A stretch of DNA of 64,000 nucleotides from the IMG/VR virus record IMGVR_UViG_3300015615_000196, positions 32,001 through 96,000 of that record; one strand, 5' to 3'. Source of the stretch: a virus (taxonomy: Duplodnaviria > Caudoviricetes). This document shows, piece by piece, positions 21,473 to 63,913 of the stretch. The position numbers and the translations under genes are program-made. Positions within the stretch are counted from its first letter, which is position 1. Every line of letters starts with the position of its first letter. A model generated the notes under the pieces. It did not search any database and was not told the DNA's origin. It worked only from the letters and a program-made list of their open reading frames with translations.

Positions 21473-21817
21473 ATGGAGAAGATTTCTAAAGTCATCAGAT
21501 CACACGCGAATGGATCAATGTTCGAGTACGTGTTCTTTTGTCCGGGATGTGGTTGTGCACACGGGATTCGTACTACAAGTTGGCCGATGCCAACCGGATT
21601 AACAGAAGAGTACATTGAACTCTTCCAGAACAAATGGACTTTTAATGGTGATGTTGAGAAGCCTACTATACACCCTTCCATTCATGTATGGCATAAAGAT
21701 AAGAAAGGCAATAAAACTACAACTTGCCATTCGTTCGTTACGGAAGGTAAAATCCAATACCTCAATGATTGTATCCACGATTTAAAGGGACAGACAATCG
21801 ACTTGCCGGATTTTTGA
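21473..21817 (+). CDS. Zn-binding DUF6527-like protein
   Basis: FCPGCGCAH, PTIHPSI and CHSFVTEGKIQYLNDCIH. Confidence 0.6.
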   Translation: MEKISKVIRSHANGSMFEYVFFCPGCGCAHGIRTTSWPMPTGLTEEYIELFQNKWTFNGDVEKPTIHPSIHVWHKDKKGNKTTTCHSFVTEGKIQYLNDCIHDLKGQTIDLPDF

Positions 21818-21893
21818 GCACAAGGTGGGATTCGAACCCACGACATATGCCTGTTTTGCAGACAGGAGCCTTGAACCACTTGGCGACATGTGC
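21817..21893 (-). tRNA. tRNA-Cys(GCA)
   Basis: Cloverleaf, CCUGU-CUGCAAA-ACAGG. Confidence 0.9.
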
Positions 21894-21898
21894 GTGTG

Positions 21899-21980
21899 TA
21901 CCCCCGACAGGATTCGAACCTGTACGCCTTTCGGCACTACGTTCTAAGCGTAGCATGACTACCATTTCCAACACGGGGGC
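21899..21980 (-). tRNA. tRNA-Leu(TAG)
   Basis: Type II cloverleaf, loop CUUAGAA. Confidence 0.92.
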
Positions 21981-22516
21981 ATTTTAATCTCTTTCTAATA
22001 AGTATTTATGGGTATGCAGGGAGTAAACGAAATAACCAACATTTTCAAGGACGACCAAGAATACATTCCGGTCATTGCTGATCACGGAACGGTTGATGAT
22101 GCCATTTTCGGTGCTGCACTTCGTAAGGGTCATCTACCCAAATCCAATGTTACTACCGAATCTTTCAACATTGTCAAGAAGAATATCTACAAGATACACA
22201 AGCATGACGTGCCAAAGTTACTCAAGCTGCTCGAAGGTCTCAACAAAAGGCATCAAAATCAATTTCAGCCTCACATTGACGACATTTCTTACCACTTCAA
22301 CTCAATCAAAAAGAAGAACTAATCCTTATCTACATCGTTGAGTACGTACTTCACAAGAAGCACAACTGCGATTGTACTGAAAGGAATAAACAGTATGATC
22401 AAATCGATCAAGAAAAGAACTGGATTAATGAATCCATGATTCTTCAACTTGTAGTAAGTTGTCAACGGGAGGATTATTCTCCACCAGTTGAATTGCTTGA
22501 TCTTATCCATCATATG

Positions 22517-22598
22517 TACCCTTGGAGGGACTCGAACCCCCACGCCTCACGGCACTGGCTTCTTAGACCAGCGTGGCTACCAATTACACCACAAGGGC
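22517..22598 (-). tRNA. tRNA-Leu(AAG)
   Basis: Type II cloverleaf, CUGGU-CUAAGAA-GCCAG. Confidence 0.88.
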
Positions 22599-22627
22599 AT
22601 GTACATTTAAATACTGAGAAGTATTTG

Positions 22628-22698
22628 AGCCTTGACTGAGAATTGAACTCAGATTCTTTGTTTACGAAACAAAAGTTTTGCCGTTAAACTATCAAGGC
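22628..22698 (-). tRNA. tRNA-Thr(CGT)
   Basis: Loop UUCGUAA. Confidence 0.85.
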
Positions 22699-22705
22699 AA
22701 TTTTT

Positions 22706-22780
22706 TGGAGCCTCCAATGAGAATCGAACTCATGTTTCTCCCTTACCAAGGGAATGTTCTACCATTGCAACTATGGAGGC
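22706..22780 (-). tRNA. tRNA-Thr(GGT)
   Basis: Loop UUGGUAA; encoded CCA. Confidence 0.92.
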
Positions 22781-22786
22781 TTATAC

Positions 22787-22872
22787 AAAGTATTGTTCTG
22801 ACATTGAACTACGCCCTTACGTCATGATCGTAATTTGAGGATCGGTGGGACTCCAACCCACAACTATACTTC
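22787..22872 (-). ncRNA. Circularly permuted tRNA-like (Y RNA/YrlA-like) RNA 2
   Basis: T-arm GUGGG-UUGGAGU-CCCAC lies 5' of D-arm GUUC-AAUGUCA-GAAC; closed by AAGUAU/AUACUU. Confidence 0.6.
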
Positions 22873-22874
22873 TG

Positions 22875-22947
22875 AGACCGTAACGGGACTCAAACCCGTA
22901 GCTTTTCGTTTTAGGGACGACCACTCTATCAGTTGAGTTATACGGCC
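22875..22947 (-). tRNA. Amber suppressor tRNA(CUA)
   Basis: GGCCGUA/UACGGUC acceptor, U73; GUCGU-CCCUAAA-ACGAA; C33 instead of U33. Confidence 0.75.
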
Positions 22948-22956
22948 AAATATTAG

Positions 22957-23161
22957 AACAACAAGCACTCTGACATTGAGTTACATCCGTGCAGTGGCCA
23001 CTGTACATGTCAAACTTTGGATTCTTCCCTGATGACTTGACGTTGTAAGGGGAATTCTCATATTGCTACAAGAATTACAACATCTTTATAACGCCTTTGC
23101 TCTGGTATCGAACTTTCAGCTTGGTGGATGATGGGAATCCAACCCACAACTTCTTGTTGTT
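22957..23161 (-). ncRNA. Circularly permuted tRNA-like (Y RNA/YrlA-like) RNA 1
   Basis: AACAACAAG/CUUGUUGUU closing stem; T-arm GUGGG-UUGGAUU-CCCAU; CAUCC/GGAUG acceptor-like stem with ~140-nt insert; D-arm ACUC-AAUGUCA-GAGU. Confidence 0.6.
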
Positions 23162-23164
23162 TTG

Positions 23165-23237
23165 TGCGGAAGGTGAGAATCGAACTCACATTACTGGTTT
23201 TTCAAACCAGCACCTTGACCACGTTGGTAACAACCGC
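23165..23237 (-). tRNA. tRNA-Phe(GAA)
   Basis: Loop UUGAAAA. Confidence 0.85.
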
Positions 23238-23243
23238 ATATCG

Positions 23244-23315
23244 TGGAGATAATGGGAATCGAACCCACTTGTGATGTCGTCTGACACCAAACTCGTCCAT
23301 TGAGTAACTATCCCC
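23244..23315 (-). tRNA. tRNA-like RNA with Ala acceptor identity and non-canonical anticodon arm
   Basis: GGGGAUA/UAUCUCC (G3:U70), A73, normal T-arm; 7-bp stem capped by AGAC. Confidence 0.55.
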
Positions 23316-23818
23316 TACTAAATAATTTCTTCAAAAATTTCCATTTGGTATCGACACCCGTTGTCGGATATGTCTCTACATCAAAAACCTCTTTGTAACC
23401 TGACCAGCAATCGTCTGGCATTTTTGTCCAGACACAGAACATTCCAATTGCCGGAGTGTCTTTTCCGAGTTTCAACAATCGCCACGTTCCACCATATATT
23501 TTGCGATACCATTTCTTATCCAAGAAATTGCTACCCCAATACATGTTCTCTTGTTTCCGTAGCAGGTCTAACGATTCTGTTACCATTTGTCGTAGTCGGT
23601 TAAGTTGATTTTTTTACCGTCTGCTCTTTCTACTTCTACAACAGTTCCAAGTCCTGTTGGTGTAAACATGAAGGTGTACCCACCACCGATTGTAGCAGGA
23701 GGAAGTTTCTTCAACTTCTTATTCCATGCTTCGAGTTTTTTGATTTCATCTTCATCCAGTTCAAACTTGTAACTGGTTAAGATTTTTCCTGTATTTGCTT
23801 TCATACAAATAATTTATG

Positions 23819-23907
23819 CTCTTCCTATAGGATTCGAACCTATGCGGGGTGATTGCCACCCACCTGATTAACAGTCAGGACTTTTCGGCCACTAAAGCAA
23901 AGGAAGA
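23819..23907 (-). tRNA. tRNA-Asn(GTT) with long variable arm
   Basis: Loop CUGUUAA; GGGUG-gcaau-CACCC extra arm. Confidence 0.8.
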
Positions 23908-24112
23908 ATTTATTCATCAAATCCGGTTTCGTAAAAACCAGTCGTAATGAAGTCTGTATTATTCAATCCGATAAATCTGAATTTCTCCACAAGTTCGGGA
24001 TTGATCTTAACAACGTTTCCGTTGTCGTCAAGAAACTGGATGTCCTTCAAGTCAACCTTGTTGATCTCTCGTCTACGGGCATCCAGTTCTAAAATTTCGC
24101 TTATTTTTACTT

Positions 24113-24478
24113 TCATACTTCTGAAACTACTGCAAAGTAGATTTCTTTTGGCATTTCTCCAAATATGAATGCAGTTACATCACACAACCACATATTGAAA
24201 TCATAATCGATGCTCTTGTACGATTTGAGGTTGTACACTGCACCACCAACTTCTTCCATATCCGGCACACCGTTGCAAACCCATGTGAGTTTGTCGGCCC
24301 CGCCAAAATCTTCATCAGCAAATCTCAACTTAATTTCTCCTTGTCCTTGAGAAAGTATGTCAAGAAAACTATCAGCACCAAGAACCATTTGGAGTGCATC
24401 TTTACCACCTTCCCATTCAGGAAGATCAATATACCAGTTCCCCGATGTCTCTTTGTAAAACTTGCATGTCCTTTCCAT
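24113..24478 (-). CDS. Hypothetical protein (DUF6717-like)
   Basis: WYIDLPEW...LQMVLGAD...WLCDVT..FGEMPK.IY. Confidence 0.55.
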   Translation of the reverse strand: MERTCKFYKETSGNWYIDLPEWEGGKDALQMVLGADSFLDILSQGQGEIKLRFADEDFGGADKLTWVCNGVPDMEEVGGAVYNLKSYKSIDYDFNMWLCDVTAFIFGEMPKEIYFAVVSEV

Positions 24479-24795
24479 AGTGCTTCTTTATTTTGTTCAG
24501 AAGAGCAAGGTCTTCTGCGTTGTAATCATCATCTTTTTTCTTCTTGTTCATTTCTTCGATTGATTCGTAGAAACGAATTCGGTGTCTCCACACGTACTTT
24601 GCACCAACTGCTTTCTTGAATGTTCTTAAATCCAGATCATCGTGTAACCAGTAAAGTGCGTAATCTTGTCCTGCGTAACCTTCAATGAAATCTTGTCCTT
24701 CAATTAATTCTGATTTTAGTATTGCCTTGCGAATGTATTTCTTGTAGTGTGTAAGTCCCTTAATGTAAATCGTTCTCATTGTTTTGTTTCATATG

Positions 24796-24883
24796 CAGAG
24801 AGTGAGGGATTCGAACCCCCGTTACCCGCAAGGGGTAATCCAGTTTTCAAGACTGGTGCAATCATCCACTCTGCCAACTCTCT
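24796..24883 (-). tRNA. tRNA-Ser(TGA)
   Basis: Type II, loop CUUGAAA. Confidence 0.92.
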
Positions 24884-24902
24884 ATTGTAGTAATACATAC
24901 TC

Positions 24903-25406
24903 TCATATTAGTGAAAGTATTGATTCTGTCGCGTTTTTCAAACTGATTTCAACATACGGTACTTTGAACCATTCCAGACAACGAAGCACTTCTTCGTCTA
25001 CTTTGATCGCGTCTTCAAGTTTCTGCGATCTCCCGTGTTCTTTGTATTCAGTCTCACGTTTCAAGAAGAAGTTCAAGTTCTGGTATCTCTTGAATTCGTG
25101 AAAGACGTTTGCATGGAAGTGTTTGTTGTCGTCACCTTTTCCACTGTACACGATTGAATTGAACAGTGGTGCATCGGTTACGGCAATGTCAATCGTATCT
25201 TTCAGACGGAAGAATTTCTGGTGCTGATTCGCGAAAATCATTTGCTGATTTTCCATCATTTTGAATGACTGGTTCCACGTAAGTTCTTTTGCGTACTCGT
25301 CAACATATTCAACTTTGAGTTGCTTCATGTTTAGTTCCGTGAAAACCCTCATTGCAACCGTTGTCTTACCGACTCCGGGGCCACCAAAAAGATTGATTAC
25401 CTTCAT
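24903..25406 (-). CDS. P-loop kinase (NadR/AAA_28-like)
   Basis: MKVINLFGGPGVGKTT, EYAKE and TDAPL; true start lies after the tRNA. Confidence 0.75.
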   Translation of the reverse strand: MKVINLFGGPGVGKTTVAMRVFTELNMKQLKVEYVDEYAKELTWNQSFKMMENQQMIFANQHQKFFRLKDTIDIAVTDAPLFNSIVYSGKGDDNKHFHANVFHEFKRYQNLNFFLKRETEYKEHGRSQKLEDAIKVDEEVLRCLEWFKVPYVEISLKNATESILSLI

Positions 25407-25447
25407 AAGATTTGCTTTCCACAAATATATGAAATCTCTTTTGAATT

Positions 25448-25540
25448 TGGAAGAGGGTGTGGGACTCGAACCCACAAATCGGAATGGTTACCGACTTGCT
25501 CGTTTTCAAGACGAGTTCTTCATCCAGCCAGATACCCTCT
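25448..25540 (-). tRNA. tRNA-Ser(TGA), atypical D-arm
   Basis: Loop CUUGAAA; long variable arm; CCA. Confidence 0.75.
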
Positions 25541-25546
25541 ATGGTT

Positions 25547-25636
25547 TGGCAGAGAGTACAGGACTCGAACCTGTAAGACGTTTTACCGTCACGCCTGTTT
25601 TCGAGACAGGTGCATTGCCAATTATGCTAACTCTCT
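25547..25636 (-). tRNA. tRNA-Ser(CGA)
   Basis: Loop CUCGAAA; CCA. Confidence 0.9.
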
Positions 25637-25644
25637 GTGTATTG

Positions 25645-25733
25645 AGGAAAAGATGGGAGTCGAACCCACATTGGCGGTTCGTTGCCAGTGACGGCCCGGT
25701 TTCCTCCATATTAACCAGTTATAAGACCTTCCC
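25645..25733 (-). tRNA. Atypical tRNA-like RNA, anticodon unresolved
   Basis: Acceptor GGGAAGG/CUUUUCC and T-arm present; no canonical anticodon arm. Confidence 0.45.
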
Positions 25734-25870
25734 AAGTTAAATGTGTTGTTGTAAGTAGTAAGGGGTCGAACCTTTTTATGCCGTCCTCTTCTTTCCGTTT
25801 TCACTGTTCGAACAGTTACTAACGTGTCTGCGCAGACCAACACCGAAGTTATAAGCCCCGGCCACATTTG

Positions 25871-25943
25871 AGCGAGTGAAGGGACTCGAACCCTCAACTC
25901 CTGATTGGAAGTCAGGTGTGTTAGCCATTAGCACCACACTCGC
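25871..25943 (-). tRNA. tRNA-Gly(TCC)
   Basis: Loop CUUCCAA. Confidence 0.92.
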
Positions 25944-26098
25944 AGATGTCAAAACTTATTGTTTGGTATTTTGACTGGATGCCCATCATACCCTGCCGGA
26001 TATAAAAGTTTCCTGATTCTCTCAACATCACCATTGTCCACCAGTTCTAATCAACTGAAACAATCCTTGCATAGATGAATAGTCTACACAAGCCCGTG

Positions 26099-26170
26099 AG
26101 CAGATAGAGGGAATCGAACCCTCGTCCGTGCCTTGGCAAGGCACTATAATAACCACTATACGACATCTGC
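26099..26170 (-). tRNA. tRNA-Gly(GCC)
   Basis: Loop UUGCCAA. Confidence 0.9.
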
Positions 26171-26331
26171 GGATCAAAGCAGCATTGTTTTTTCAGGGTG
26201 ATCAAACCCTCTGGCTCCACGCATCACCACTGACCCACTTCACATTGATCAAATGTTCATCATGGTTCGCTGACACTTAAACGGTTTAAACATTCACTTA
26301 CGCCACGCGAGTAAGCTACACTACTTCAAAG

Positions 26332-26405
26332 AGCGAATAGTGGGGTTCGAACCCACGAGCCTTCTCCTTGGCAAGGAGACGTTCTACCAACTGAACTACA
26401 TTCGC
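26332..26405 (-). tRNA. tRNA-Gly(GCC)
   Basis: Loop UUGCCAA. Confidence 0.92.
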
Positions 26406-26468
26406 ATGGAGGCAGAGAGGCAGTGCTCCCACTGTGAGTCCCTTTTAAACTCTGCCATTTAATTATTG

Positions 26469-26542
26469 CTGGTTGGGTGAGAGTCGAACTCACATCTTAC
26501 AAGTTAACAGCTTGCCGTTTTACCAATTAGTACTACCAACCA
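26469..26542 (-). tRNA. tRNA-Asn(GTT)
   Basis: Loop CUGUUAA. Confidence 0.85.
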
Positions 26543-26547
26543 AAGTG

Positions 26548-26638
26548 CGGAGAGTGAGGGATTTGAACCCCCGGAACCCTTTTACGGGTTCGCCTGTTTA
26601 GCAAACAGGTGCAATCGGCCAGACTCTGCCAACTCTCC
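26548..26638 (-). tRNA. tRNA-Ser(GCT)
   Basis: Type II, loop UUGCUAA. Confidence 0.92.
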
Positions 26639-26642
26639 ATTA

Positions 26643-26727
26643 TGCATCGTATACGATTCGAACGTATGATTCTTTAAAGGAATGTCCGCTACACGCAGAC
26701 CGTCTTAAACCACTCAACCAACGATAC
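26643..26727 (-). tRNA. Leu-type tRNA body with aberrant anticodon loop (CGUGUAG)
   Basis: A73, long variable arm; GUCUG-CGUGUAG-CGGAC. Confidence 0.55.
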
Positions 26728-26733
26728 ATGTTG

Positions 26734-26806
26734 TAGGCAATGAAGGACTCGAACCTTCCTGACCACTTTATAAGAGTGGCATAATCCACCCATATATGAA
26801 TTGCCC
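26734..26806 (-). tRNA. tRNA-Ile(TAT)
   Basis: CCACU-CUUAUAA-AGUGG. Confidence 0.85.
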
Positions 26807-27159
26807 ATTTATTTTTTTCGACCACCATTCAAAATTTCGACTTTGAATTTTGTCTTGATCACATTCAAGATCAAAGTCTTTACAAACTCTGGTAGTTTGC
26901 TGTTGTTTTTTACTTCCTCTTCAAACTGATGAACCATCAATGATCCATAGTAGTTCTTGTTTCTTATGGTTTTCAAATCAACAAAGAATTTGTTGTATCT
27001 CTGCATGATTCGATTCACAGACCAAGTGATGTCCGGTCGATTCAATTCTTCCAGAACTTCTTCTAAGACAACGGCACATCTGTATTCTCTTGATGTGTAT
27101 GCATCTGCCCTAAATTTTTTCTCATACGGTTTGTGTTCCATAAATTTATTTAAGTTTTG

Positions 27160-27272
27160 CTGTACCAGTAGGATTCGAACCTACATAAGGAGATTAGGAC
27201 GTTACTGTCTTTCTCTCTTTTTCCTCTCCCCTGAGACAGAGGGGAAATGTCTGCCAGTTCCACCACAGTACA
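27160..27272 (-). tRNA. tRNA-Asp(GTC)-like with ~40-nt variable insert
   Basis: CCCCU-CUGUCUC-AGGGG, G73, purine-rich insert. Confidence 0.6.
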
Positions 27273-27279
27273 ATTTATG

Positions 27280-27352
27280 TCGTCAAGGTAGGATTCGAAC
27301 CTACAGTCTCCAAGGTATCAGCTTGGCGATTTAACCGTTAATCTACATGACG
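27280..27352 (-). tRNA. tRNA-Ile(GAT)
   Basis: Loop CUGAUAC. Confidence 0.88.
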
Positions 27353-27397
27353 ATAGCAAGTGCCATTTATTTTACCTGAATATGGCGAACAGTTTAG

Positions 27398-27469
27398 TAG
27401 GCAGTGAAGGAGTCGAGCCTTCGTGACGAACTTATCAGGTTCGCATAATAACCCTTATATGAACCGCCC
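27398..27469 (-). tRNA. tRNA-Ile(GAT)
   Basis: Loop CUGAUAA. Confidence 0.82.
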
Positions 27470-28055
27470 ATTTATTTTCTTGTTTTGAATTCTTCTACGT
27501 ACTCTTTTGCTTCCGGGTCTTTACCCCAACCTTCGTTTCCGCTTGAATGTGCACCAACAAAACCAAAATTTACTATAGTTGTAGTGAATCTAAAGGTGTA
27601 GTTACCAACCTGAAATTCTTTTGCCTCCGGGTCTTCCGTGATCGCAATCGTATCGACCTCTCTCACTTTGAATTTCTTTAGTGAGTCTTTGAAGGACTTG
27701 ATGTTTATGTTACAGACTTCCATTTTACATGTATTTTTTTACCCATTCTTCTCTGGATGCAATTGCTTCTATCATCATTTTCATCATGAGTGCAACATTC
27801 TCTTCACTGCTTGACGAATCATCGGCTTGTCTTGCCAACATTACTTGATGCTTCTTATTCAGAAGATAGTACTCCAAGATCGTTCCGTTTCCGTTGTTTT
27901 GTGCACCAACTAATTCGAAATTCAAAAGAGGTTTGTCTCTCTTTGTCAAGAGCCTCAACTTTCGTGTATTGATGAAACATAAATCCATTGTTTAGGTTTT
28001 ATTCGTCAAGTAATCGGTTATTCAACCCATCCCCCAATTCAGGATGCAACCAGAG

Positions 28056-28129
28056 TACTCTCGGAGGGACTCGAACCCCCAACCCTTTCGTTCGAAGCGA
28101 ATCGTTCTTCCAATTGAAACTACGAGAGC
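28056..28129 (-). tRNA. tRNA-Arg(TCG)
   Basis: Loop CUUCGAA. Confidence 0.88.
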
Positions 28130-28134
28130 ATATG

Positions 28135-28207
28135 TACCTTCGGAGGGAATCGAACCCCCATTTGATCGTTCGTAGCGACCCGTTCTGATCCGTTAAACTA
28201 CGAAGGC
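28135..28207 (-). tRNA. tRNA-Arg(ACG)
   Basis: Loop CUACGAA. Confidence 0.9.
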
Positions 28208-28218
28208 ATATTTTGTTG

Positions 28219-28291
28219 AACATCTGATGGGACTCGAACCCACAACTACCCGTTTAGGAAACAGGGGTTCTTCCAATTGAACTACAGATGC
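28219..28291 (-). tRNA. tRNA-Arg(CCT)
   Basis: Loop UUCCUAA. Confidence 0.9.
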
Positions 28292-28295
28292 TTAT

Positions 28296-28371
28296 TGGTA
28301 CACTCGGAGGGACTCGAACCCCCAACGACTTGTTTAGAAGACAAGCGTTCTTCCGGTTGAACTACGAGTGC
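28296..28371 (-). tRNA. tRNA-Arg(TCT)
   Basis: Loop CUUCUAA; CCA. Confidence 0.92.
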
Positions 28372-28668
28372 ATATTAATGTTCGAAACAATCATACACAT
28401 AGATAGGAGTTTGTTCTCCCATGTACGCACCTGAAATGTTGAACTCGAAAAATTCTATGGCTTCTTCGTGCGTCATACCATCCCTGCTCATTAGCTTTTG
28501 GATGATCTTACCCACAGAGTAACACAGTCTCATTTTTGATTCATCAACTCCGATGACTGCATCATCGTGACCGTCAACTGTCAAAAAATTTTCTTCTAAA
28601 TAATATTCCAAAATCTCTTTAAGCATTTTTTGAATATTTGAGTCAGTGTTAATTAGAATAATCCATTG

Positions 28669-28740
28669 TACCCCTGACAGGAATCGAACCTGTATCAAAT
28701 GATTAGAAGTCACTTATTCTGTCCATTGAACTACGGGGGC
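28669..28740 (-). tRNA. tRNA-Arg(TCT)
   Basis: Loop CUUCUAA. Confidence 0.92.
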
Positions 28741-29000
28741 AGATCGGTTTAAACTCCGAACGTGAATTGGAAGTTCTCCCCTAAATCTCTTTTCACCTTT
28801 TGTCTGATGATGTTCTTGAAGTTTCCTTCGAACAAGAATGCAGTCAAGCCAACGTGAGCAATCACTCTTTTTTGTTTTCCACTCTCTACGATTGTGGATA
28901 CTGAGTTGATGCCTTCGACTTCAACTAAATTCATTTCGTTCAACAGAACAAACTTGTCAGAGACTAAATCTTTGATTGTATACATGCATTTAATTTTTAG

Positions 29001-29083
29001 AGCCAACTGTGGGATTCGAACCCACGCGACCTCACGGTTCCTGATTACAAATCAGGTGCAATCGTCCTCTATGCGAAGTTGGC
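29001..29083 (-). tRNA. tRNA-Thr(TGT) with extra arm
   Basis: Loop UUUGUAA; ACC-gtga-GGU variable hairpin. Confidence 0.85.
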
Positions 29084-29260
29084 GTTTAATGTCAGTAAAT
29101 ATCTTGCCACAGATAAATACTGGCACTATTATGCGTAATTATACGGATTTTATCCCGCATACGCAAATAATACTTCTCAACATGTCAATGATCAAATGAG
29201 ACCAGTGAATAAGGCTGTGCTTCGGCAAGCACATTTACGGCAACCTTATTCAAGGTTTCG

Positions 29261-29332
29261 TGGGACTAACAGGAATCGAACCTGTGCTGCGAGATTTTCA
29301 GTCTCGTACTCTACCTACTGAGTTATAGTCCC
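29261..29332 (-). tRNA. tRNA-Phe(GAA)
   Basis: Loop CUGAAAA. Confidence 0.92.
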
Positions 29333-29337
29333 AAATG

Positions 29338-29466
29338 CACAAAGGGTGGGAGTCGAACCCACAAGATACTTGAACCTACTACGAGTCACCTTCGCTTGAA
29401 GGCTTCTCTTTTTTGTTCGTTCTCACCGTTTTGGAGACGGGTTACCTCACCAATGGTGGCCGATGT
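29338..29466 (-). tRNA. tRNA-Trp(CCA)-like with ~60-nt variable insert
   Basis: CCGU-CUCCAAA-ACGG; T-arm intact; acceptor has two mismatches. Confidence 0.55.
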
Positions 29467-29471
29467 GTGTG

Positions 29472-29542
29472 CACAGGTAGTAGGATTCGAACCCACATCA
29501 ACGGTTTTGGAGACCGCTATACTGCCGTTGTACGATACCTGT
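29472..29542 (-). tRNA. tRNA-Trp(CCA)
   Basis: Loop CUCCAAA. Confidence 0.9.
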
Positions 29543-29579
29543 AAAATAAAAAACCCGATCTTTTGGATCGGGTCTTTTT
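29543..29579 (-). terminator. Attenuator terminator of tRNA array 1
   Basis: ACCCGAUC-caaaa-GAUCGGGU followed by a U tract, ending at the 5' end of tRNA-Trp. Confidence 0.85.
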
Positions 29580-29601: not shown

Positions 29602-29730
29602 TTAGATAGTGTTTAAGTCAAACGACCCGATATGAGAATTACTGCCTCTAAAATTGAGCGTAGAAATTCCTCCTGTTATGGTTGAACCACACCAGTTAAT
29701 GCGGGAAATATTTGACATTAGACTTTTCAT
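29602..29730 (-). CDS. Leader peptide of tRNA array 1 (42 aa)
   Basis: MKSLMSNISRINWCGSTITGGISTLNFRGSNSHIGSFDLNTI; contains the antiterminator AUCGGGUC (29624-29631). Confidence 0.75.
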   Translation of the reverse strand: MKSLMSNISRINWCGSTITGGISTLNFRGSNSHIGSFDLNTI

Positions 29731-43062: not shown

Positions 43063-43098
43063 GCAACAAAATTAATAGATTTGCGTATAACAGAAAAT

Positions 43099-48129: not shown

Positions 48130-48858
48130 TCCCAAAACGGGAATTAAATTATATGTTCTTCTCTCGGTATGGTTTCCTTTATTGGAACAAATCCAGCTTG
48201 AATTTCGTCATCGATGTCAGGGAGAAAACTTAATTTAGTTTTCTTCTTCCTGTTACCTTCGTTTTCCCAAAACCAAAAACACATTGCTGCGCTATCCCAC
48301 ATCGCTACGATCATAGGTTGATCTTTTGAATAGACTGTATAATTCTGCATTATATAGCCCGAATAATAATACCCATCTTTCAGGGTTGCTTTCTGCAACA
48401 CGTTAATCATACGTCACAAATTTAAAAATGAAATAAAAAGTCCACCCTGAGCGACCTGTTCAATGGGAAGGCGGGTGGACATGTTAAGGATAAATACTGA
48501 CCCTGAGAACGATTCACAACTAAAGTAGAATTAATGCCAGATGTTTCACCAGCACGTTTGGTCAGGAATATTACCAGTATCTATACCTTATTCTCTCGAT
48601 TCTTTCCTAAATGATAACCGTCACACCAGAGGCATTTATAGTTACTGAAATAAACGCCCCTCTTCTCAGACATTTTCTTTGCTGATTTTTGAGCCGTCTC
48701 TTTCGTGTTGTAACTCACCTTCGGTTCACCATTATCTCTCAAATGGCTGCGCTTATCAATCAGACCAAGTAAGTGACCTTTGAAAAGATTTCTCATTAAT
48801 CTCTTCATCGGTAGCTGGTCTTTAAACGCCAGTCTTATGTTTCTTAACTTGATCATAG

Positions 48859-48940
48859 TGGGAGCAGTAGGACTCGAACCTACGAAGCCCGGAGGCGACA
48901 GATTTACAGTCTGTTGTAATTGCCGCTATACGATACTCCC
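48859..48940 (-). tRNA. tRNA-Tyr(GTA)
   Basis: Type II, loop CUGUAAA. Confidence 0.9.
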
Positions 48941-49968: not shown

Positions 49969-50054
49969 TGGTGGGCAGGGAGGGATTCGAACCCCCGAAC
50001 TCCGAAGAGGACGCATTTACAGTGCGTTGCCGTTAACCACTTGGCTACCTACCC
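49969..50054 (-). tRNA. tRNA-Tyr(GTA)
   Basis: Type II; CCA. Confidence 0.93.
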
Positions 50055-50061
50055 ATTGATG

Positions 50062-50133
50062 TACCCTCGGAGAGATTCGAACTCTCGACTCGCTGATTAA
50101 GAGTCAGCTACTCTACCACTGAGTTACGAAGGT
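50062..50133 (-). tRNA. tRNA-Lys(CTT)
   Basis: Loop CUCUUAA. Confidence 0.9.
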
Positions 50134-50138
50134 ATCTG

Positions 50139-50211
50139 TTCCCCTGTTTGGAATCGAACCAAACCCCACTGATTAAGAGTCAGTTGCCTACAGCCAGTTT
50201 GCTACAGAGGA
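50139..50211 (-). tRNA. tRNA-Lys(CTT)
   Basis: Loop CUCUUAA. Confidence 0.85.
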
Positions 50212-50218
50212 ATATAAG

Positions 50219-50365
50219 TGGGATAGAGGGGAATTGCACCAATCGAAAGCCACAGCTAAATCTTTATGTACAATATTACAAATAGCCTAATCTTTCTTTT
50301 ATTTACCTTAGCCTTTTGAGCACCGTCTTCATGACGGCTCCGTTCATTTCACGAAAAGCTATCCC
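50219..50365 (-). ncRNA. tRNA-like RNA with a long insert
   Basis: GGGAUAG/CUAUCCC acceptor with A73; GCCGUC/GACGGU arm; degenerate T-arm. Confidence 0.4.
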
Positions 50366-50449
50366 ATATTTCAAAGAACGTGGGGATTGTACTGTGGCGA
50401 TTTCTCGATCTGACTGAACAGATTGCACATACTACTTCGTCCCCGAAAG

Positions 50450-50522
50450 TACCCCCATTTGGAATCGAACCAAACCCTTCTGGTTAAAAGCCAGAAGCCC
50501 ACGACCAGTCTGCTATGGAGGC
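50450..50522 (-). tRNA. tRNA-Lys(TTT)
   Basis: Loop CUUUUAA. Confidence 0.85.
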
Positions 50523-50531
50523 ATAACTGTG

Positions 50532-50604
50532 TGTCCCCGGAGAGGTTCGAACTCTCGACTCCCACATTAAAAGTGTGGTACTCTACCAACTGAGTTACAG
50601 AGAC
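50532..50604 (-). tRNA. tRNA-Lys(TTT)
   Basis: Loop CUUUUAA. Confidence 0.92.
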
Positions 50605-50621
50605 TTTATTTAAGTTTTCTG

Positions 50622-50709
50622 TGCACCCGGTGGGAATCGAACCCACTTTATGCTTGCGCCTTTATTGATTAAAAGTCAATTGCCTCAATCTCCGGTCGGC
50701 CACGAGTGC
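50622..50709 (-). tRNA. tRNA-Lys(TTT) with long variable region
   Basis: Loop CUUUUAA; ~17-nt variable region. Confidence 0.78.
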
Positions 50710-50805
50710 AGAGTTTTATCATCCACTCCCGTGTACGGGGTGGAGACTAAGGTTTTCGTTTCAATCTTAAAGCGTAATACATAAAATGTTCGTTCAAATG
50801 TTCTG

Positions 50806-50876
50806 TGGGTTAGGAGGGATTCGAACCCTCGTGCCTACGTTTTACAGACGTTGCCCAATGCCCCGTTGTCCAACCC
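50806..50876 (-). tRNA. tRNA-Tyr(GTA), short variable loop, atypical D-arm
   Basis: ACGU-CUGUAAA-ACGU. Confidence 0.7.
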
Positions 50877-50880
50877 GTAT

Positions 50881-50915
50881 AAAATAAAAAACCCGATCTT
50901 TTTCAGGGATCGGGT
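50881..50915 (-). terminator. Attenuator terminator of tRNA array 2
   Basis: ACCCGAUC...GAUCGGGU followed by a U tract; same stem as 29543-29579. Confidence 0.85.
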
Positions 50916-50941
50916 ATGTTCATATTGTTATGAAATGTCAA

Positions 50942-51007
50942 TTACATACTTTTTCCCTGTCTACTGAAAGACTTCTTATAGGTTTTATATGAATATGACT
51001 TTTTCAT
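50942..51007 (-). CDS. Leader peptide of the Lys/Tyr tRNA array (21 aa)
   Basis: MKKSYSYKTYKKSFSRQGKSM; contains the antiterminator CAGGGA-aaaa-GUAUG. Confidence 0.78.
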   Translation of the reverse strand: MKKSYSYKTYKKSFSRQGKSM

Positions 51008-51027
51008 TGTCGTTGTCAATTGTGGTA

Positions 51028-51066
51028 CAAATGTACACTTAAATACGGGGAAGTCAAGAAAAGGTT
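51028..51066 (-). promoter_or_regulatory. Tandem promoters: AACCTTTT-N11-CGTAT and TAnnTTTG
   Basis: 51043-51066, and TACATTTG at 51028-51035; same layout as array 1. Confidence 0.7.
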
Positions 51067-51281
51067 GCGAAAATTTCTGTCTTTTTTTCCTCAGTAGGTT
51101 TGTTGAAGAACCGTTCGTACTCTCTTATGGAACCTCTGAGCCTTCCTAAAGGACACGGAAGTATCGGGTAACACACCCAATATTCCAGCATTTTTTAAAT
51201 TCTGATTGGCTTGCGCCAGTGCATCTTGAAGGTGTACGATTTGCTCACCGAGTTTATACACCTGCATTTCTCTCAAGTTTC

Positions 51282-51986
51282 TCATATGTCAAAATTGAAT
51301 CCACCTTTTTTCAATTGTTCGTATTTTTCTTTGTTGAACTGGAAGATGATCGCTCGTCTTCCGATGTGACCAGATGTTTTCTTTCTTGTGTTTCGAAGAA
51401 GGTTGTATCCGTTGATCTTCTTCATGAAGTTTCTTCGATCAAGACCTTCTCCAAGAATCGCTTCATAAAGTGCAAAGAGATCACTCATGGTAAATTCTTC
51501 CGGCAAGAGATCAAATCCAATCGGCTCATACTTAATCTTGTTCTGCAATCTTTCGAAAGCATAGGCCATGATCTTGTAATGATCAAATGCAAATTGCAGT
51601 TTGAGGGTGTCTTTGAGTGGGAACCACTTTACTTCTTTTGCATGAAGATTCGGTGACAGAGAATGATTCTCTGGATTGATCAACACGTAGTATGAGATTG
51701 AAATGATTCTTTCTCGTGGATCACGTTTCACATCCGTGAACGTGTAGAGTTGTTCAAGGTACGTGAGATCGATGTTGGTTTCTTCTTTAAGTTTTCGGAT
51801 GACTGCTTTCTCAGCATTCTCCGTGTCCTCAATGAAACCACCGGGTAACGCCCACTTGTTGAGGTACGGCTCAAATGCTCTCTTGATCAAGAGGACATTC
51901 AGCTTCTTCTCAATGTAAGCAAAAACTATCGCGTCAACAGTAACCTTCATTTTCAACAAATTTATCAATTTTTCCTTGAATTCCAA
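51282..51986 (-). CDS. nrtR: Nudix-related transcriptional regulator NrtR
   Basis: VTVDAIVF, WALPGGF, LEQLYTF..RDPR, AFDH; C-terminal wHTH FTMSDL...DRRNF. Confidence 0.9.
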   Translation of the reverse strand: MEFKEKLINLLKMKVTVDAIVFAYIEKKLNVLLIKRAFEPYLNKWALPGGFIEDTENAEKAVIRKLKEETNIDLTYLEQLYTFTDVKRDPRERIISISYYVLINPENHSLSPNLHAKEVKWFPLKDTLKLQFAFDHYKIMAYAFERLQNKIKYEPIGFDLLPEEFTMSDLFALYEAILGEGLDRRNFMKKINGYNLLRNTRKKTSGHIGRRAIIFQFNKEKYEQLKKGGFNFDI

Positions 51987-52389
51987 AGTACTTTTTTATC
52001 GGTAACCAGTCGGTTTCCGCATCGAAACCTGCCTTGTCTTCAAACAGTACGTTGAAGTACGGCTTGTCTTCGTAGTACCCGTAGGTTGTGTTTTTCACAT
52101 CGGGGTTGTTGTTCACGTACTCGAACAGAATACCATGTGAAGCAAAGAAGCCCATATAACGGTCGATCTCCTTCGGATATGAACAGGTAAAGAGTGCAAT
52201 CGTCACGTCCTTACGTCTTGAAAGGTATTGCAGTACTTCCTTGGCGTGAGGATAGAACTTCAACGGATCAGCGTTATTGTAATCCGGGTAGAGGATCGTT
52301 TCGTGAATATCAAAGTAGAAATATACTTTGTCCCATCCACGCTTCTGCATGTTCTTGAATGTCTTGTCGATTGCTTTGAGTACGCTCAT
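51934..52389 (-). CDS. HAD-like hypothetical protein
   Basis: FDIHETIL...KPYFNVLFEDKAGF. Confidence 0.6.
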   Translation of the reverse strand: MSVLKAIDKTFKNMQKRGWDKVYFYFDIHETILYPDYNNADPLKFYPHAKEVLQYLSRRKDVTIALFTCSYPKEIDRYMGFFASHGILFEYVNNNPDVKNTTYGYYEDKPYFNVLFEDKAGFDAETDWLPIKKYFGIQGKIDKFVENEGYC

Positions 52390-53297
52390 TGTGTCAAAAT
52401 TGTTTTAAGTGCTTTATGGAATTCTCCTGCTACTTCAACTTCTTTGAAGCCGATGTAGCTTTTTGCTTGCTCTGGATATGGCAATGTATTTGTTGTATAC
52501 ACAAACGGTGTATGAGGGCATACAGCAAACTTAGTCACTGCAACACCAGAAAACAAACCGTGTGCAGCAAAAACATATACGTTTTTCGCTCCGTTTTCTT
52601 TTAGGGTATCGATTGCTTTCAGGATCGTTCCACCTGTGTCGATCATGTCGTCCACAAGAATTACATCACAATCAGTAACGTCTCCTATCAAGGTCATCTT
52701 CTCAACCTTGTTTGCTTCCTTTCTTTCCTTGTCGATTATCGCGAAACCACAACCTAATGCCTGTGCATATTTCTTTGCACGTTTCATTCCACCCAAGTCA
52801 GGAGAAATGATTTTCGGGTTCTTGAGATCGATGGCTTTGATTTCATCAACCAGCAATCCCATTGGATCGAGATTGTAGAATGGTATCTTGTAGAACCCTT
52901 CAATGGCTGTTGTGTGAACATCCATTGTAACCAGTCGATCAAGACCAGCTACTTGAAGCATATCAGCAAGCAAACGTGCTGAGATCGTAGTCCTAACCTT
53001 TTCTTCTCTGCGTTCCTGACGAGAGTGTGGAAGGTATGGGATAATGCCAATGATCTCCCGTGCACTTGCTCTACGAGCAGCGTCAATGGTTTCAAGAAGT
53101 TCGAAAATGTCTTCATACGTTCTTGGTTGTGACACAACCACAATCGATTCATTACGAACCGATTCTTCAATGACAACGGTGATCTCACCATTGGCAAATT
53201 TGGTTTTGTGAATTTGACCAAGAGTATATCCAGCATTACACTTTACAAGTTTCTTGGTGAATTCTTCGCTGTTCGATTGTGGGAATATCTTTACCAT
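52386..53297 (-). CDS. prs: Ribose-phosphate pyrophosphokinase
   Basis: FANGE, PYLPHSRQER, MDVH, SPDLGG and VDDMIDTGGT motifs. Confidence 0.93.
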   Translation of the reverse strand: MVKIFPQSNSEEFTKKLVKCNAGYTLGQIHKTKFANGEITVVIEESVRNESIVVVSQPRTYEDIFELLETIDAARRASAREIIGIIPYLPHSRQERREEKVRTTISARLLADMLQVAGLDRLVTMDVHTTAIEGFYKIPFYNLDPMGLLVDEIKAIDLKNPKIISPDLGGMKRAKKYAQALGCGFAIIDKERKEANKVEKMTLIGDVTDCDVILVDDMIDTGGTILKAIDTLKENGAKNVYVFAAHGLFSGVAVTKFAVCPHTPFVYTTNTLPYPEQAKSYIGFKEVEVAGEFHKALKTILTQ

Positions 53298-53604
53298 GAT
53301 TACATGAATTTAATGACTTTCAAAATTTGTTCGTAGGACATTTCGTTTAGCATGTTCTCGGCTTTCTCCAAGTACTGCCTTCTTGACGATCCCGGATTCT
53401 TCCAGCTTTCGTAAAACCAACCACACTGGTCTTCGTGTGCCCAATGACATTGTTTCTCGTGCAAGAGTTCTGCAACCCTTTGTACTTCTGTCAAACCATT
53501 GAAAGCAACTCTCTGTGCTTTCAAATCTCGAATTTGTTTTTCGAGTTCAAGGATTTTGTCGTCAATATCAAAAATCTTCATAACCGTAAGTTTAAAGAAG
53601 TGGC

Positions 53605-55245: not shown

Positions 55246-55269
55246 ATCAGTAAGTGTTTATTGTAATTG

Positions 55270-56184
55270 TTATTTCGTGAGTTTGTGCTTCAAGAGTGCA
55301 AGCAAATGTTGATGTTCCCCAACTACTTCGGTAGCGTTGAGTGTCTTCACATTGAACCAACGTACTTCTGTGATGTCATCATTTGCTTTTTCTGAACCAC
55401 CACCGAAAACTTTCTTTGCTTTGAAGAACGTAGTCATGATTGATCTTCCGTTTTCCGAACGGTATCTCCAATCTTTTACTTTTGCCGAAGCGATGTACTG
55501 GATGTCATCGATTTCAACACCAGTTTCTTCGTATGCTTCTCTGCGAACAGTTTGTTCGAGACTTTCATCTGCAACATCAGCGAAACCACCAATGAAACGG
55601 AATTCAACTTCGTCTTTCTTACGGCCAAGCAGAACCTGACTTTCGTCTTCATTCATGATGGCTACATCGATTGTCGGGTGAACGAAGTCGTAGGTATTGT
55701 AGCAAGCGTAGATTACACCAGCACGAAATTCTTTGATACGTTCCACCTTCTTTGAAACCGACTTTCTGATTTCGGTAGCAGACACCATTGATTGTGGAAC
55801 AAGTTCGTTTACATCAAATTTGCCGTGATAGTGAGGGATGAATGAATCGCGTGATCCGTAAAGAACGACTGAACCAAGTGGAAATACTTCTCTGATCTTG
55901 GTATCAACTTGTGCTGACCATACGTTGTCTGATTTCTTGTCGTGTAACGGAAGAATCATTGAGATTTTGTTTCCGTAGACTTCTTCAAACATTACCTTTC
56001 TTGACATGAAGTCAAGTGGATTTGTTTTTGTTGAGAGTGTGGGTGATACCCCTAAGAAAAGGAGAACCCTTTCGTGGCGACTGATAACTTCATCGATCAG
56101 TGCCTTGTGTGCTTCGTGGAGTTCATGGATTTGAAAACGTCCGATGATGACTCCGATGTCGTATTTTTTCTTTAAGTCTTCCAT
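55270..56184 (-). CDS. nadM: Bifunctional NMN adenylyltransferase / ADP-ribose Nudix hydrolase
   Basis: IGRFQIHELHEAH, NPL and SATEIR; Nudix box GG...ESLEQTVRREAYEETG. Confidence 0.9.
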   Translation of the reverse strand: MEDLKKKYDIGVIIGRFQIHELHEAHKALIDEVISRHERVLLFLGVSPTLSTKTNPLDFMSRKVMFEEVYGNKISMILPLHDKKSDNVWSAQVDTKIREVFPLGSVVLYGSRDSFIPHYHGKFDVNELVPQSMVSATEIRKSVSKKVERIKEFRAGVIYACYNTYDFVHPTIDVAIMNEDESQVLLGRKKDEVEFRFIGGFADVADESLEQTVRREAYEETGVEIDDIQYIASAKVKDWRYRSENGRSIMTTFFKAKKVFGGGSEKANDDITEVRWFNVKTLNATEVVGEHQHLLALLKHKLTK

Positions 56185-59295: not shown

Positions 59296-59305
59296 ACCCG
59301 TAATT

Positions 59306-59329
59306 ATACGCAAAACTTGTCAAAAGGTT
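59306..59329 (-). promoter_or_regulatory. AACCTTTT-N11-CGTAT promoter
   Basis: Motif copy directly upstream of rnlA. Confidence 0.7.
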
Positions 59330-61487: not shown

Positions 61488-62576
61488 ACTAAACCAAGTC
61501 TTCTCATAATGTCATTGTTTGACTCCATCACCAAGTAGATGCTTTGGAATCTCCAATAGTTACTTCTGTCTTTTCCTGCCTTGATGTCGTTCAATTTTTC
61601 TTTGAACTTTTCAATAACCTGCGGATGCTTCTTCGGCAACTTCAATTCTCTTGTGATGTTTTTCAAGAGGCCAAGAAGTTCACGATCTGCTTTCGTCTTG
61701 CTTCCTTGCTTACGACTTGCAGCAGCAAGCATTTGACGATACTTCGGAATTGCACGAACTTGTTCTTCGTTCAGTTGGTTCTCCGACATCAACTTTCGTA
61801 ACATCTTCGCCTCATTTTTATTGGGCAAGTGTACGTCAGGTGGCAGCGATAATTTCAGTTGGTGTCTCGGATCGTTGCTAAAATTTCTGTAGTAACCATT
61901 CTCTTCATCGTCCAGATACATTGCTCTTTAATTTATATGTGAAAACTCGTTCAAGTATTTCCTTCAATTCATTGCCTTTATCAACATGAATCATATTCCA
62001 AAGAATCATGTCGATATGTCCACCAACATTCTTATCTGTTTTGAATGAACGTTTTCGAGTTGAAAGATCGAGAAATCTTTTGTATTCATCATTGAAAAGT
62101 TGACCCACAACTTTTGATTCTTTCACGTATTCTTCTTTTGATACTTTGTTTAAAAGAAACCTATACTCTGCCAGTTCATTTTCAGTTAAACTTTCGTCAC
62201 GCTTACGAAAAACGCCATTGAAAAAATCAGTCTGTCTTACTGATTTATGGAAAGAATGAAACCATTCTTTTTTACCTGATTTTTTATAGTAGGAATCTTT
62301 TCCTGTCGCAACATCTTTGAGATATTGAAGATATGTCTCCAATTCGGATGGCTCGATCAATGAAAAAAGATGATGGTAGATTGCAACCAGAGAACCAAAA
62401 TCGTGGATTCTTTCTTGAGCCTTTTTCAGTTCGAACATTAGGGCTTCTTGAAGTGGAAACCGCTCTGGCTGGTTAATTTTTGGGTTTTTCATGATGGTAT
62501 ACGTATGTACTGCAATATACGTAAATTCATCAGAAAAGTTATTCCAAGACGAAAATTAACATTCTGATTTGAGTAG

Positions 62577-62650
62577 TACCCCGTGAGAGAATCGAACTCC
62601 CGACCTTCTGTTTGTAAGACAGACGTTCTAAACCACTGAACTAACGGGGC
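62577..62650 (-). tRNA. tRNA-Val(TAC)
   Basis: Loop CUUACAA. Confidence 0.92.
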
Positions 62651-62877
62651 ATCTTTTTTCTTTCTTCCATCAACTGTGCCATGAAATCTGCAATGTCTCG
62701 AAGACAAGTTTTTTCAAAGACAGTATGTTCTGCCGGATAAAAAGAATATTGTCGAAATGAACCAAACCAACGTACAGTGCCGAGAACTACACCGTTCTCT
62801 TTATTCTGTACCACAAACACTTTTGTTTTCCTATCAGGAAAATCTTGTTCGATGAATTCAATCCATTTAGCCATATG

Positions 62878-62950
62878 TAGTCCGGGTGGGACTCGAACCC
62901 ACGATAGCTGCTTTGTAGGAGCAGTGCTTTTGCCACTAAGCTACCAGACT
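62878..62950 (-). tRNA. tRNA-Val(TAC), C33
   Basis: Loop CCUACAA. Confidence 0.85.
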
Positions 62951-63049
62951 ATGTAACAGCATACTTCATTCAGAGCCGTCAATCAAGACGATCCCAAGCG
63001 GGAGCCGAGTCCGTTTAAGAAGTTTCCAGCTTTACGCAAACTGTTATTG

Positions 63050-63120
63050 TACCCGATGAAAGAATCGAACTTTCGTACTTCGCATGTCAAACGAATACTC
63101 TTCCATTGAGTTAATCGGGC
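63050..63120 (-). tRNA. tRNA-Val(GAC)
   Basis: Loop UUGACAU. Confidence 0.85.
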
Positions 63121-63125
63121 ATATG

Positions 63126-63210
63126 CGGTGAATTAAGGACTCGAACCTCGCCTCCCTTTTTGCGCTTAGGGTATGCTACCTATCCCGAAGGACAATTACA
63201 CTAAATCACC
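63126..63210 (-). tRNA. Atypical tRNA-like RNA (enlarged D and anticodon loops)
   Basis: GGUGA/UCACC acceptor, T-loop GGUUCGAGUCC, 10-nt anticodon-position loop. Confidence 0.45.
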
Positions 63211-63279
63211 ATTTGGAACAATCGAAACTGTTCGAACTACTTTGACTACGTGTCTAAGTTGTTCCGATTATTTCCGTTG

Positions 63280-63352
63280 TAGCGGGTGTGGGACTTGCAC
63301 CACACGACCTCAAGGTTATGAGCCTTGCGAGATACTACTTCTCCAACCCGCG
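63280..63352 (-). tRNA. tRNA-fMet(CAT)
   Basis: C1:U72 mismatch; loop CUCAUAA. Confidence 0.85.
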
Positions 63353-63429
63353 ATATAATGTTGTCTTTCCAACTGCCAATAGTCTCAATTCTGTACGTCA
63401 TTCAGGTAGAGCACTACACCACCTTATTG

Positions 63430-63520
63430 TAGCGGGGGTGGGAATCGAACCCACGAGGTCAATTTTTTTAGACACAAGGTTATGAGCCTTGACTGCTACC
63501 GTCTACAGGGCTACCCCGCG
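63430..63520 (-). tRNA. tRNA-fMet(CAT)-like with long variable arm
   Basis: C1:U72; loop CUCAUAA; GUC-uaaaaaaauu-GAC extra arm. Confidence 0.7.
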
Positions 63521-63760
63521 ATATAATTTTAATGACTTCACTTTTCTTTCCACACTTGTGACAAACATATTGAAATTCACTCCAACGTTTCTCTGTGAAA
63601 ATATTTCTGAATTCAACTCTTCCTAATGGTGTGTAAATCATTGGTAGATTACAATCAACACATTTCATTGAATCTCCCGCAGGAGTTATCGTCAATGGAA
63701 TGTAAGGTATAAACCAATATCCACAAGAAAAAATTTCTTTCAATGTGAAACCTTTCATAG

Positions 63761-63840
63761 TATCGACAAGGGGAATCGAACCTCCGGCCACTTCCAAAGA
63801 AACAGAAGCCACAAGCACCACTTGTGTATTGATTGTCGAA
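63761..63840 (-). tRNA. Degenerate tRNA-like RNA
   Basis: Acceptor UCGACA/UGUCGA and T-arm; anticodon unclear. Confidence 0.4.
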
Positions 63841-63841
63841 G

Positions 63842-63913
63842 TAGCGATACACAGAATCGAACTGTGGTTTTCCCCTTATGAGAGGGACGTACTGGCCGTT
63901 GTACTATATCGCT
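63842..63913 (-). tRNA. tRNA-Met/Ile2(CAT)
   Basis: Paired 1:72; loop CUCAUAA. Confidence 0.88.

Follow-up and report, generated by a model that had tools for sequence, protein, structure and literature searches.

Matched leader peptides and terminators before four tRNA arrays of a jumbo phage suggest attenuation as feedback on tRNA supply

Whether phages carry tRNA genes because of codon bias or to replace destroyed host tRNAs is a decades-old open question. An array of Lys and Tyr tRNA genes located behind a short, Lys- and Tyr-rich ORF and an intrinsic terminator raises a related one: does a phage gauge the supply of particular tRNAs before making more of them? We examined this array within a window of 64,000 nucleotides (C1:32001-96000) of a 362,603-bp virus record, which has direct terminal repeats and is estimated to be a complete jumbo phage genome of 362.6 kb. 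The genome encodes terminase, a CCA-adding/poly(A)-polymerase-type domain and two sigma70-family proteins of ~190 aa, the size of ECF sigma factors (C1:9870-10073, minus strand, and 254276-254485, plus strand). ARAGORN detected 61 tRNAs, 57 of which are located within four arrays (A1 to A4, the Lys/Tyr array being A2). A search of the genome for a Tyr/Trp-type (TyrRS/TrpRS) or class II Lys/Asp/Asn synthetase found none. The host is probably a member of the Bacteroidota, because the best named relatives of the phage-encoded ribosomal protein bL12 are from Cytophagales and the promoters carry the TAnnTTTG motif; a look-up of bL12 by identity gave no match, and a search for related loci via the neighbouring NrtR gene gave none. 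As described below, we consider it likely that all four arrays are under ribosome-read transcription attenuation that serves as feedback on tRNA supply.

The control region of A2 is organized on the minus strand as promoter motifs (51068-51028), ORF, a gap of 27 nt to the terminator core, terminator and, 4 nt further on, the first tRNA. A preliminary description of the locus had placed a tandem promoter upstream of the ORF, and two overlapping motifs were indeed present there. One is an ECF-sigma-like motif, AAC-N16-CGTATTTA (AAC-N16-CGTA; 51040..51068), whose promoter function is predicted from the motif match. The other is a Bacteroidota-type housekeeping motif, TTG-N20-TAnnTTTG (-33 TTG and -7 TAnnTTTG; 51028..51057), named after what we take to be the Bacteroidota promoter consensus (TTG / TAnnTTTG). 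The AAC-N16-CGTA motif had 12 matches in the genome versus 0-4 in shuffled sequences; these included all four leaders and eight other sites, and its combination with a downstream TAnnTTTG was found in a genome scan before A1, A2 and A4 only. It was also kept in the Lys/Tyr orthologues discussed below, and the -7 motif TAnnTTTG was found upstream of 27 of 35 non-redundant leaders. The two ECF-sized sigma factors are candidate readers of AAC-N16-CGTA. This motif also precedes two long stretches that have no credible ORFs and contain isolated or odd tRNAs (C1:190600-191850, plus, and 298250-299330, minus); these are probably large non-coding RNAs.

The leader ORF of A2 (50942..51007, minus) has 21 codons followed by TAA and agrees with the earlier account, in that 8 of its first 12 codons are Lys or Tyr and both AAA and AAG are used. 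The sensor region, codons 2-12 (50972..51004, minus), contains five Lys (two AAA and three AAG) and three Tyr (TAT) codons, and the two Lys codons match the TTT and CTT tRNAs of the array. Altogether, 9 of the 20 non-start codons are Lys or Tyr, compared with 12% expected from the genome (binomial P=2.7e-4). The leader is followed by an intrinsic terminator (50881..50915, minus) with an 8-bp stem and a 9-nt loop (50915-50891) and a U-tract extending to 50881; the terminator region (59 nt) folds at z=-4.1. The 3' end of the leader forms the 5' strand of an antiterminator (50944..50959, minus), and the 3' strand (50904..50919, minus) overlaps the 5' arm of the terminator, such that 50959-50954 and 50949-50944 pair with 50909-50904 and 50919-50914, respectively. 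This duplex has a computed energy of -16.0 kcal/mol (z=-3.5 versus codon shuffles), and a transcript ending before the 3' arm of the terminator folds into the antiterminator (z=-2.9), which reproduces the pairing that had been described. As for a protector/pause (1:2) hairpin, A2 shows only a weak one of 4 bp (50972-50959), and longer candidates were found in A1, A3 and A4. The leader peptide itself probably has no function as a product. Thus, A2 has the short leader ORF, the matching control codons, the intrinsic terminator and, in computed folds, the mutually exclusive antiterminator of a classical leader-peptide attenuator, and it differs from one in that tRNA genes, not genes for amino-acid biosynthesis, transport or a synthetase, are located downstream. 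An Rfam search over the whole window returned tRNA matches only, with no T-box and no family for the leader.

The composition reported earlier for the array was recovered with ARAGORN and domain searches. In the order of transcription on the minus strand, the array contains an atypical tRNA-Tyr(GTA) with a short variable arm and a weak D-arm (50805..50876), which was detected by ARAGORN only and fell below the Rfam threshold; three tRNA-Lys(TTT) (50449..50709); two tRNA-Lys(CTT) (50061..50211); a tRNA-Tyr(GTA) (49969..50054); an RNA ligase (PF09414; 49315..49959), whose likely start is the second ATG, just after this tRNA-Tyr; bL12 (PF00542/PF16320; 48947..49318); and the last tRNA-Tyr(GTA) (48858..48940). 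All tRNAs other than the first were detected by both ARAGORN and Rfam. The ligase and bL12 are absent from the Lys/Tyr arrays of three relatives (L098, L051 and L122) and hence were viewed as cargo. The array also contains tRNA-like remnants with acceptor and T-arm ends and abnormal middles (50370-50447 and about 50215-50352, minus), and similar remnants occur at C1:97880-98150 and in array A1. Directly upstream of the A2 leader is an NAD-salvage cluster (51282-56184, minus) comprising NadM-Nudix, nicotinamide/nicotinate phosphoribosyltransferase, Prs and the NrtR regulator, which we take to resemble phage NAD-reconstitution counter-defence pathways. In addition, the array is flanked by genes for a T4 Rnl1-like RNA ligase (58186-59313, minus) and a T4 Pnkp-like kinase-phosphatase (43081-44010, plus); in T4, Rnl1 and Pnkp are the pair that repairs PrrC-cut tRNA-Lys.

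Each of the four arrays is located behind a promoter motif, a leader and a terminator of the same layout, and jointly they cover all 20 amino acids. The A1 leader (29602..29730, minus) has 42 codons and is followed by a terminator with the same stem core as in A2 (29543..29578, minus) and by 28 ARAGORN tRNAs for Trp, Phe, Thr, Arg, Ile, Ser, Asn, Gly, Leu(CUN) and Cys (21816..29542, minus). Array A3 serves Asp, Leu, Ala, Glu, Met and Val; its distal part (Val, Met) is in the window (62576..63913, minus), and its leader is outside it (C1:98646-98527, minus). The A4 leader is at genome position 101214 (plus) and precedes tRNAs for Pro, His and Gln. Codons for amino acids of the own array made up 37 of 41, 9 of 20, 24 of 38 and 8 of 26 leader codons in A1, A2, A3 and A4, respectively, and every amino acid of an array was present in its leader. 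Each leader was enriched for its own array only (P of 1.5e-7, 2.7e-4, 4.5e-4 and 1.3e-3, versus P>=0.6 in all 12 cross pairs). The correspondence extends to the way in which Leu is divided: A1 encodes CUN readers and has two Leu codons in its sensor region, both of them CUN, whereas A3 encodes UUR readers and all of its Leu codons are UUR. Two tRNA-like genes with a CUA anticodon, resembling amber suppressors, were also observed, one in array A1 (22875-22947, minus; detected by Rfam, not by ARAGORN) and the other at C1:299220-299292 (minus). They prompted a check for stop-codon recoding, which was rejected, as long ORFs end in all three stops (table 11) and TAG serves as a stop across the genome as a whole. 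Recoding is irrelevant to the leaders in any case because all four end in TAA.

When viral contigs were scanned for the terminator motif alone, at least 118 loci were identified. Among the matches listed, 84 of 119 had a tRNA within 700 nt, and in 76 units a short ORF ended 23-37 nt before the terminator. Co-variation was analyzed in 31 non-redundant viral units, chosen among the matches listed by a rule blind to composition. Own-array codons accounted for 54% of leader codons versus 36% +/- 1.7 after permutation, and 98% of array amino acids occurred in the leader versus 74% +/- 3. Neither value was reached in any of 100,000 permutations; these units are related phages rather than independent events, and some arrays were cut by locus ends. 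The 4x4 comparison within the genome is free of this lack of independence. The partitions of amino acids also varied among phages, e.g., Lys/Tyr, Phe/Trp/Tyr, Pro/Gln/Tyr/Thr/Gly/Lys or 17-18 amino acids at once, which indicates that leader and array change together. With regard to isoacceptors, leaders used seven UUR and no CUN Leu codons where the array had UUR readers only, and none versus three where it had CUN readers only; the match was significant for Leu only and rests on three units, and comparisons for Ser and Arg showed no significant match.

Orthologues of the Lys/Tyr leader were found at five viral loci (L098, L051, L121, L122 and L123; L121 and L123 are incomplete downstream). 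Promoter, sensor core and terminator are retained in all of them, and an antiterminator is likewise present in each, with three different sequences among the five. The conserved sensor core is Tyr-Lys-x-Tyr-Lys-Lys. This core was itself used in searching for L098 and L121-L123, whereas L051 was identified independently of it; a Lys/Tyr search pattern starting with TAC had no match. The L098 ORF ends three codons earlier but its pairing strand is preserved, an indication that selection acts on the RNA and not on the peptide. Thus, the co-variation of leader and array in related phages and the conservation of ORF and pairing, both of which the preliminary description had proposed to look for, were observed.

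How these elements could work together was analyzed with computed folds. In 29 of 35 units, the leader formed a stronger duplex with the terminator arm than did codon-shuffled versions (median z -2.6). Matched codons were denser upstream of the antiterminator strand than beyond it (0.62 versus 0.40, p=1.8e-6), a contrast that is biased and partly forced because the pairing strand constrains its own codons. We also moved a ribosome of assumed footprint along the leaders and computed the folds at each step. In A2, the 5' arm of the terminator was captured (mean pairing 0.69) with the ribosome at codons 2-13 and was released (0.13 or less) once the ribosome reached codon 17, with Lys12 being the last sensor codon. 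In all four leaders, the modelled protection of the terminator arm likewise collapsed only a few codons from where the main sensor run ends; A1 and A3 carry further matching codons downstream of this run. At equilibrium, the terminator was always the preferred structure in A4 and mostly so in A2, where its probability along the sensor was 0.33-0.94, and because of this preference the switch would have to be kinetic, i.e., co-transcriptional. Textbook attenuators likewise switch co-transcriptionally.

These folds suggest the following sequence of events. RNA polymerase would start at the A2 leader promoter, and a ribosome would follow, translating the leader. With charged tRNA-Lys and tRNA-Tyr in plentiful supply, the ribosome would pass codon 12 fast and cover the 5' strand of the antiterminator, the terminator would form and no tRNAs would be made. 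If either tRNA were short, the ribosome would stall in codons 2-12 and the antiterminator would capture the emerging 5' arm of the terminator, allowing transcription of the Lys/Tyr tRNAs, the ligase and bL12. The three sister units would act alike for the other 18 amino acids, with negative feedback on tRNA supply as the net effect. Transcription, translation and switching of the units are predicted here from sequence; the anatomy, codon match, pairing potential, geometry and conservation that we observed agree with one another and are consistent with the trp/his-type attenuator architecture proposed earlier. Each tRNA set would then probably be made by the phage only at times when it is in short supply for the ribosomes.

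The same terminator motif was also found at 120 bacterial genome loci, mostly in Bacteroidota, where only 1 of 124 terminator matches precedes a tRNA. In chromosomes of the FCB group it closes leaders that are rich in Trp, His, Tyr or Phe/Tyr and are followed by protein genes (L127, L133, L173, L214 and L231); by eye, these genes were recognised as trpE-, hisG-, aro- and phenylalanine-hydroxylase-like. Since several bacterial matches close leaders of protein genes, we infer that the phage units use a host attenuator grammar. The tRNA-associated match belongs to Chitinophaga agrisoli (G001; L216:7163-7470, minus), in which a Ser/Trp-rich leader with three AGT codons precedes tRNA-Trp and tRNA-Ser(GCT). 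These tRNAs appear to be spares, as other Trp and Ser(GCT) genes exist in the genome, and no leader-terminator was found before the first called tRNA of the other tRNA clusters in this organism. One of its loci, a 13-gene tRNA array (L257; G001:C1:538425-539482), lies downstream of tandem repeats, each about 65-70 nt long and apparently derived from tRNA. Narrow queries among about 400 family members revealed three further cassettes. In G171 (L264), the tRNAs are Trp, Ser, Gln and Tyr, and the leader has Gln, Tyr, Ser and Trp and no Phe; the cassette of G272 (L265) adds Phe, and its leader has two Phe codons and only AGY codons for Ser; and in G148 (L266), the tRNAs are Trp, Phe and Cys, and the leader has Cys and Phe and no Gln. 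Thus, four genomes of the Chitinophagaceae family carry small tRNA cassettes with matched leaders and show the same co-variation. The cassette of G148 has a phage lysozyme on one side and an integrase on the other and was therefore counted as a prophage. The cassette of G171 is between a catalase-peroxidase and a Na+/H+ exchanger and that of G001 between an oxidase and a hydrolase, and no recognisable phage gene was seen in the 3 kb that hold the G272 cassette. These chromosomal cassettes may be phage-derived. A phylum-wide pattern match (L267) was rejected for lack of a tRNA.

Could the leaders be no sensors at all, with the hairpin acting as a constitutive partial terminator or a processing site and the ORF being a peptide gene or a chance occurrence? 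Short ORFs are common and the terminator is the equilibrium structure; however, matched leaders before four of four arrays in one genome, the permutation result, the fixed gap between stop codon and terminator, the conserved antiterminator and the early stop of the L098 orthologue with its pairing strand kept make this very improbable. A second possibility is that the leaders respond to amino acids through uncharged tRNA and do not specifically control tRNA supply. It is established for the trp and his leaders that an attenuator is blind to the difference between missing and uncharged tRNA, and host-type leaders with the same terminator appear to control amino-acid genes; a tRNA array of Anabaena is also induced by translational stress (PMC8421152). 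Yet sensing of amino acids would not need the Leu partition between two arrays to be mirrored in codon family, and separate units for each tRNA set argue for specific supply control, so that we regard amino-acid sensing as unlikely.

A further question is what the feedback on tRNA supply was selected for. The preliminary description interpreted the A2 switch as an inducible Lys/Tyr counter-defence against PrrC and PARIS. As a trigger, tRNA cleavage is plausible, but the Lys/Tyr specificity was too narrow, as the same device precedes four arrays covering all 20 amino acids and partitions differ elsewhere. Host anticodon nucleases, general tRNA decay and translational load are all plausible causes of a shortage; since all 20 amino acids are covered, decay or load would trip the switch too, and the system is not specific to PrrC, AriB or Retron-Eco7. 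Selection of the same switch specifically as an inducible counter-defence against anticodon nucleases (PrrC, PARIS AriB and Retron-Eco7 PtuAB) seems possible to us, although we lean against it. Published reports indicate that tRNA-Lys is cut by PrrC and AriB and tRNA-Tyr by Retron-Eco7, and that rescue by phage tRNAs depends on promoter strength (PMC11555353, PMC12409363). Moreover, several phages have a unit devoted to Lys and Tyr, A2 encodes tRNAs of the targeted species (three each of Lys(TTT) and Tyr), an RNA ligase is located inside this array with T4-like Rnl1, Pnkp and NAD-salvage genes within 10 kb, and making more tRNA helps if a tRNA is missing, not if an amino acid is. On the other hand, gating spans all 20 amino acids, partitions differ between phages, the Lys/Tyr arrays of the three relatives lack the ligase, and some bacterial chromosomes have cassettes of a similar kind with no phage genes close by; Thr and Asn tRNAs, which are encoded here in another unit, are cut by AriB as well (PMC12409363). 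A broader proposal, that Bacteroidota phages and some chromosomes use codon-resolved tRNA feedback in which only the depleted block is turned on and which answers tRNA-cleaving immunity in real time, falls just short of an even chance in our judgement.

If the leaders are indeed sensors, tRNAs would be made on demand when decoding slows, the leader codons would list what the phage monitors, attenuation would extend from enzymes to tRNA genes, and the leaders would be ready-made reporters of isoacceptor depletion. Because the C. agrisoli chromosome carries a cassette, the mechanism is testable in a cultured bacterium without isolation of a phage. A full-text literature search, which had most subscription journals outside its reach, did not turn up any description of tRNA genes controlled by leader attenuation, in agreement with the preliminary description, which was unaware of such control for phage tRNA arrays; similarly, attenuators, leaders and terminators go unmentioned in a survey of phage tRNAs from 2026 (PMC13015707). 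Thus, the mechanism is classical, and the gating of tRNA genes by leader attenuation is apparently a new use of it.

Known leaders of this kind include trpL, hisL, pheL, leuL, thrL and that of ilvGMEDA, the last two being multivalent. In these, as in the phage units, a short leader is translated, its control codons precede the antiterminator strand, and the antiterminator overlaps an intrinsic terminator (background on attenuators of amino-acid operons is given in PMC4833913). In contrast to them, the phage units are phage-encoded, regulate tRNAs and not enzymes, cover as many as 10 amino acids per leader in this phage and 17-18 in relatives, match Leu at the level of isoacceptors and form a partitioned set that spans all 20 amino acids. 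The E. coli pheST attenuator, with the pheM leader, tunes a translation component to the level of charged tRNA. It is alike in sensing charged tRNA and differs in that it is cellular, targets a synthetase and responds to one amino acid. T-box riboswitches bind uncharged tRNA directly and need no ribosome. They share with the phage units a terminator/antiterminator switch that reports tRNA status, and differ in being ribosome-free; as noted, Rfam detected none in the window. The trn operon of Anabaena is a tRNA array induced by translational stress through the repressor TrcR (PMC8421152, PMC10272220) and resembles the phage arrays as a spare set turned on when translation is impaired; however, it depends on a DNA-binding repressor at initiation, is not codon-specific, and neither attenuation nor a leader is mentioned (PMC8421152). 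Phage T5 and SP15 tRNAs (Lys, Thr, Asn and Tyr) rescue from PARIS, PrrC and Retron-Eco7 (PMC11464382, PMC12409363, PMC11555353). Here too, phage tRNAs replace host tRNAs, with Lys and Tyr the best-documented targets, but the accessible parts of these reports ascribe rescue to a strong promoter and a cleavage-resistant sequence and describe no sensing element. Further counterparts are the leaders in Bacteroidota and other FCB chromosomes, which have the same terminator motif and a similar gap and promoter type and differ in that proteins are encoded downstream; these chromosomal leaders are the likely source of the grammar of the phage units.
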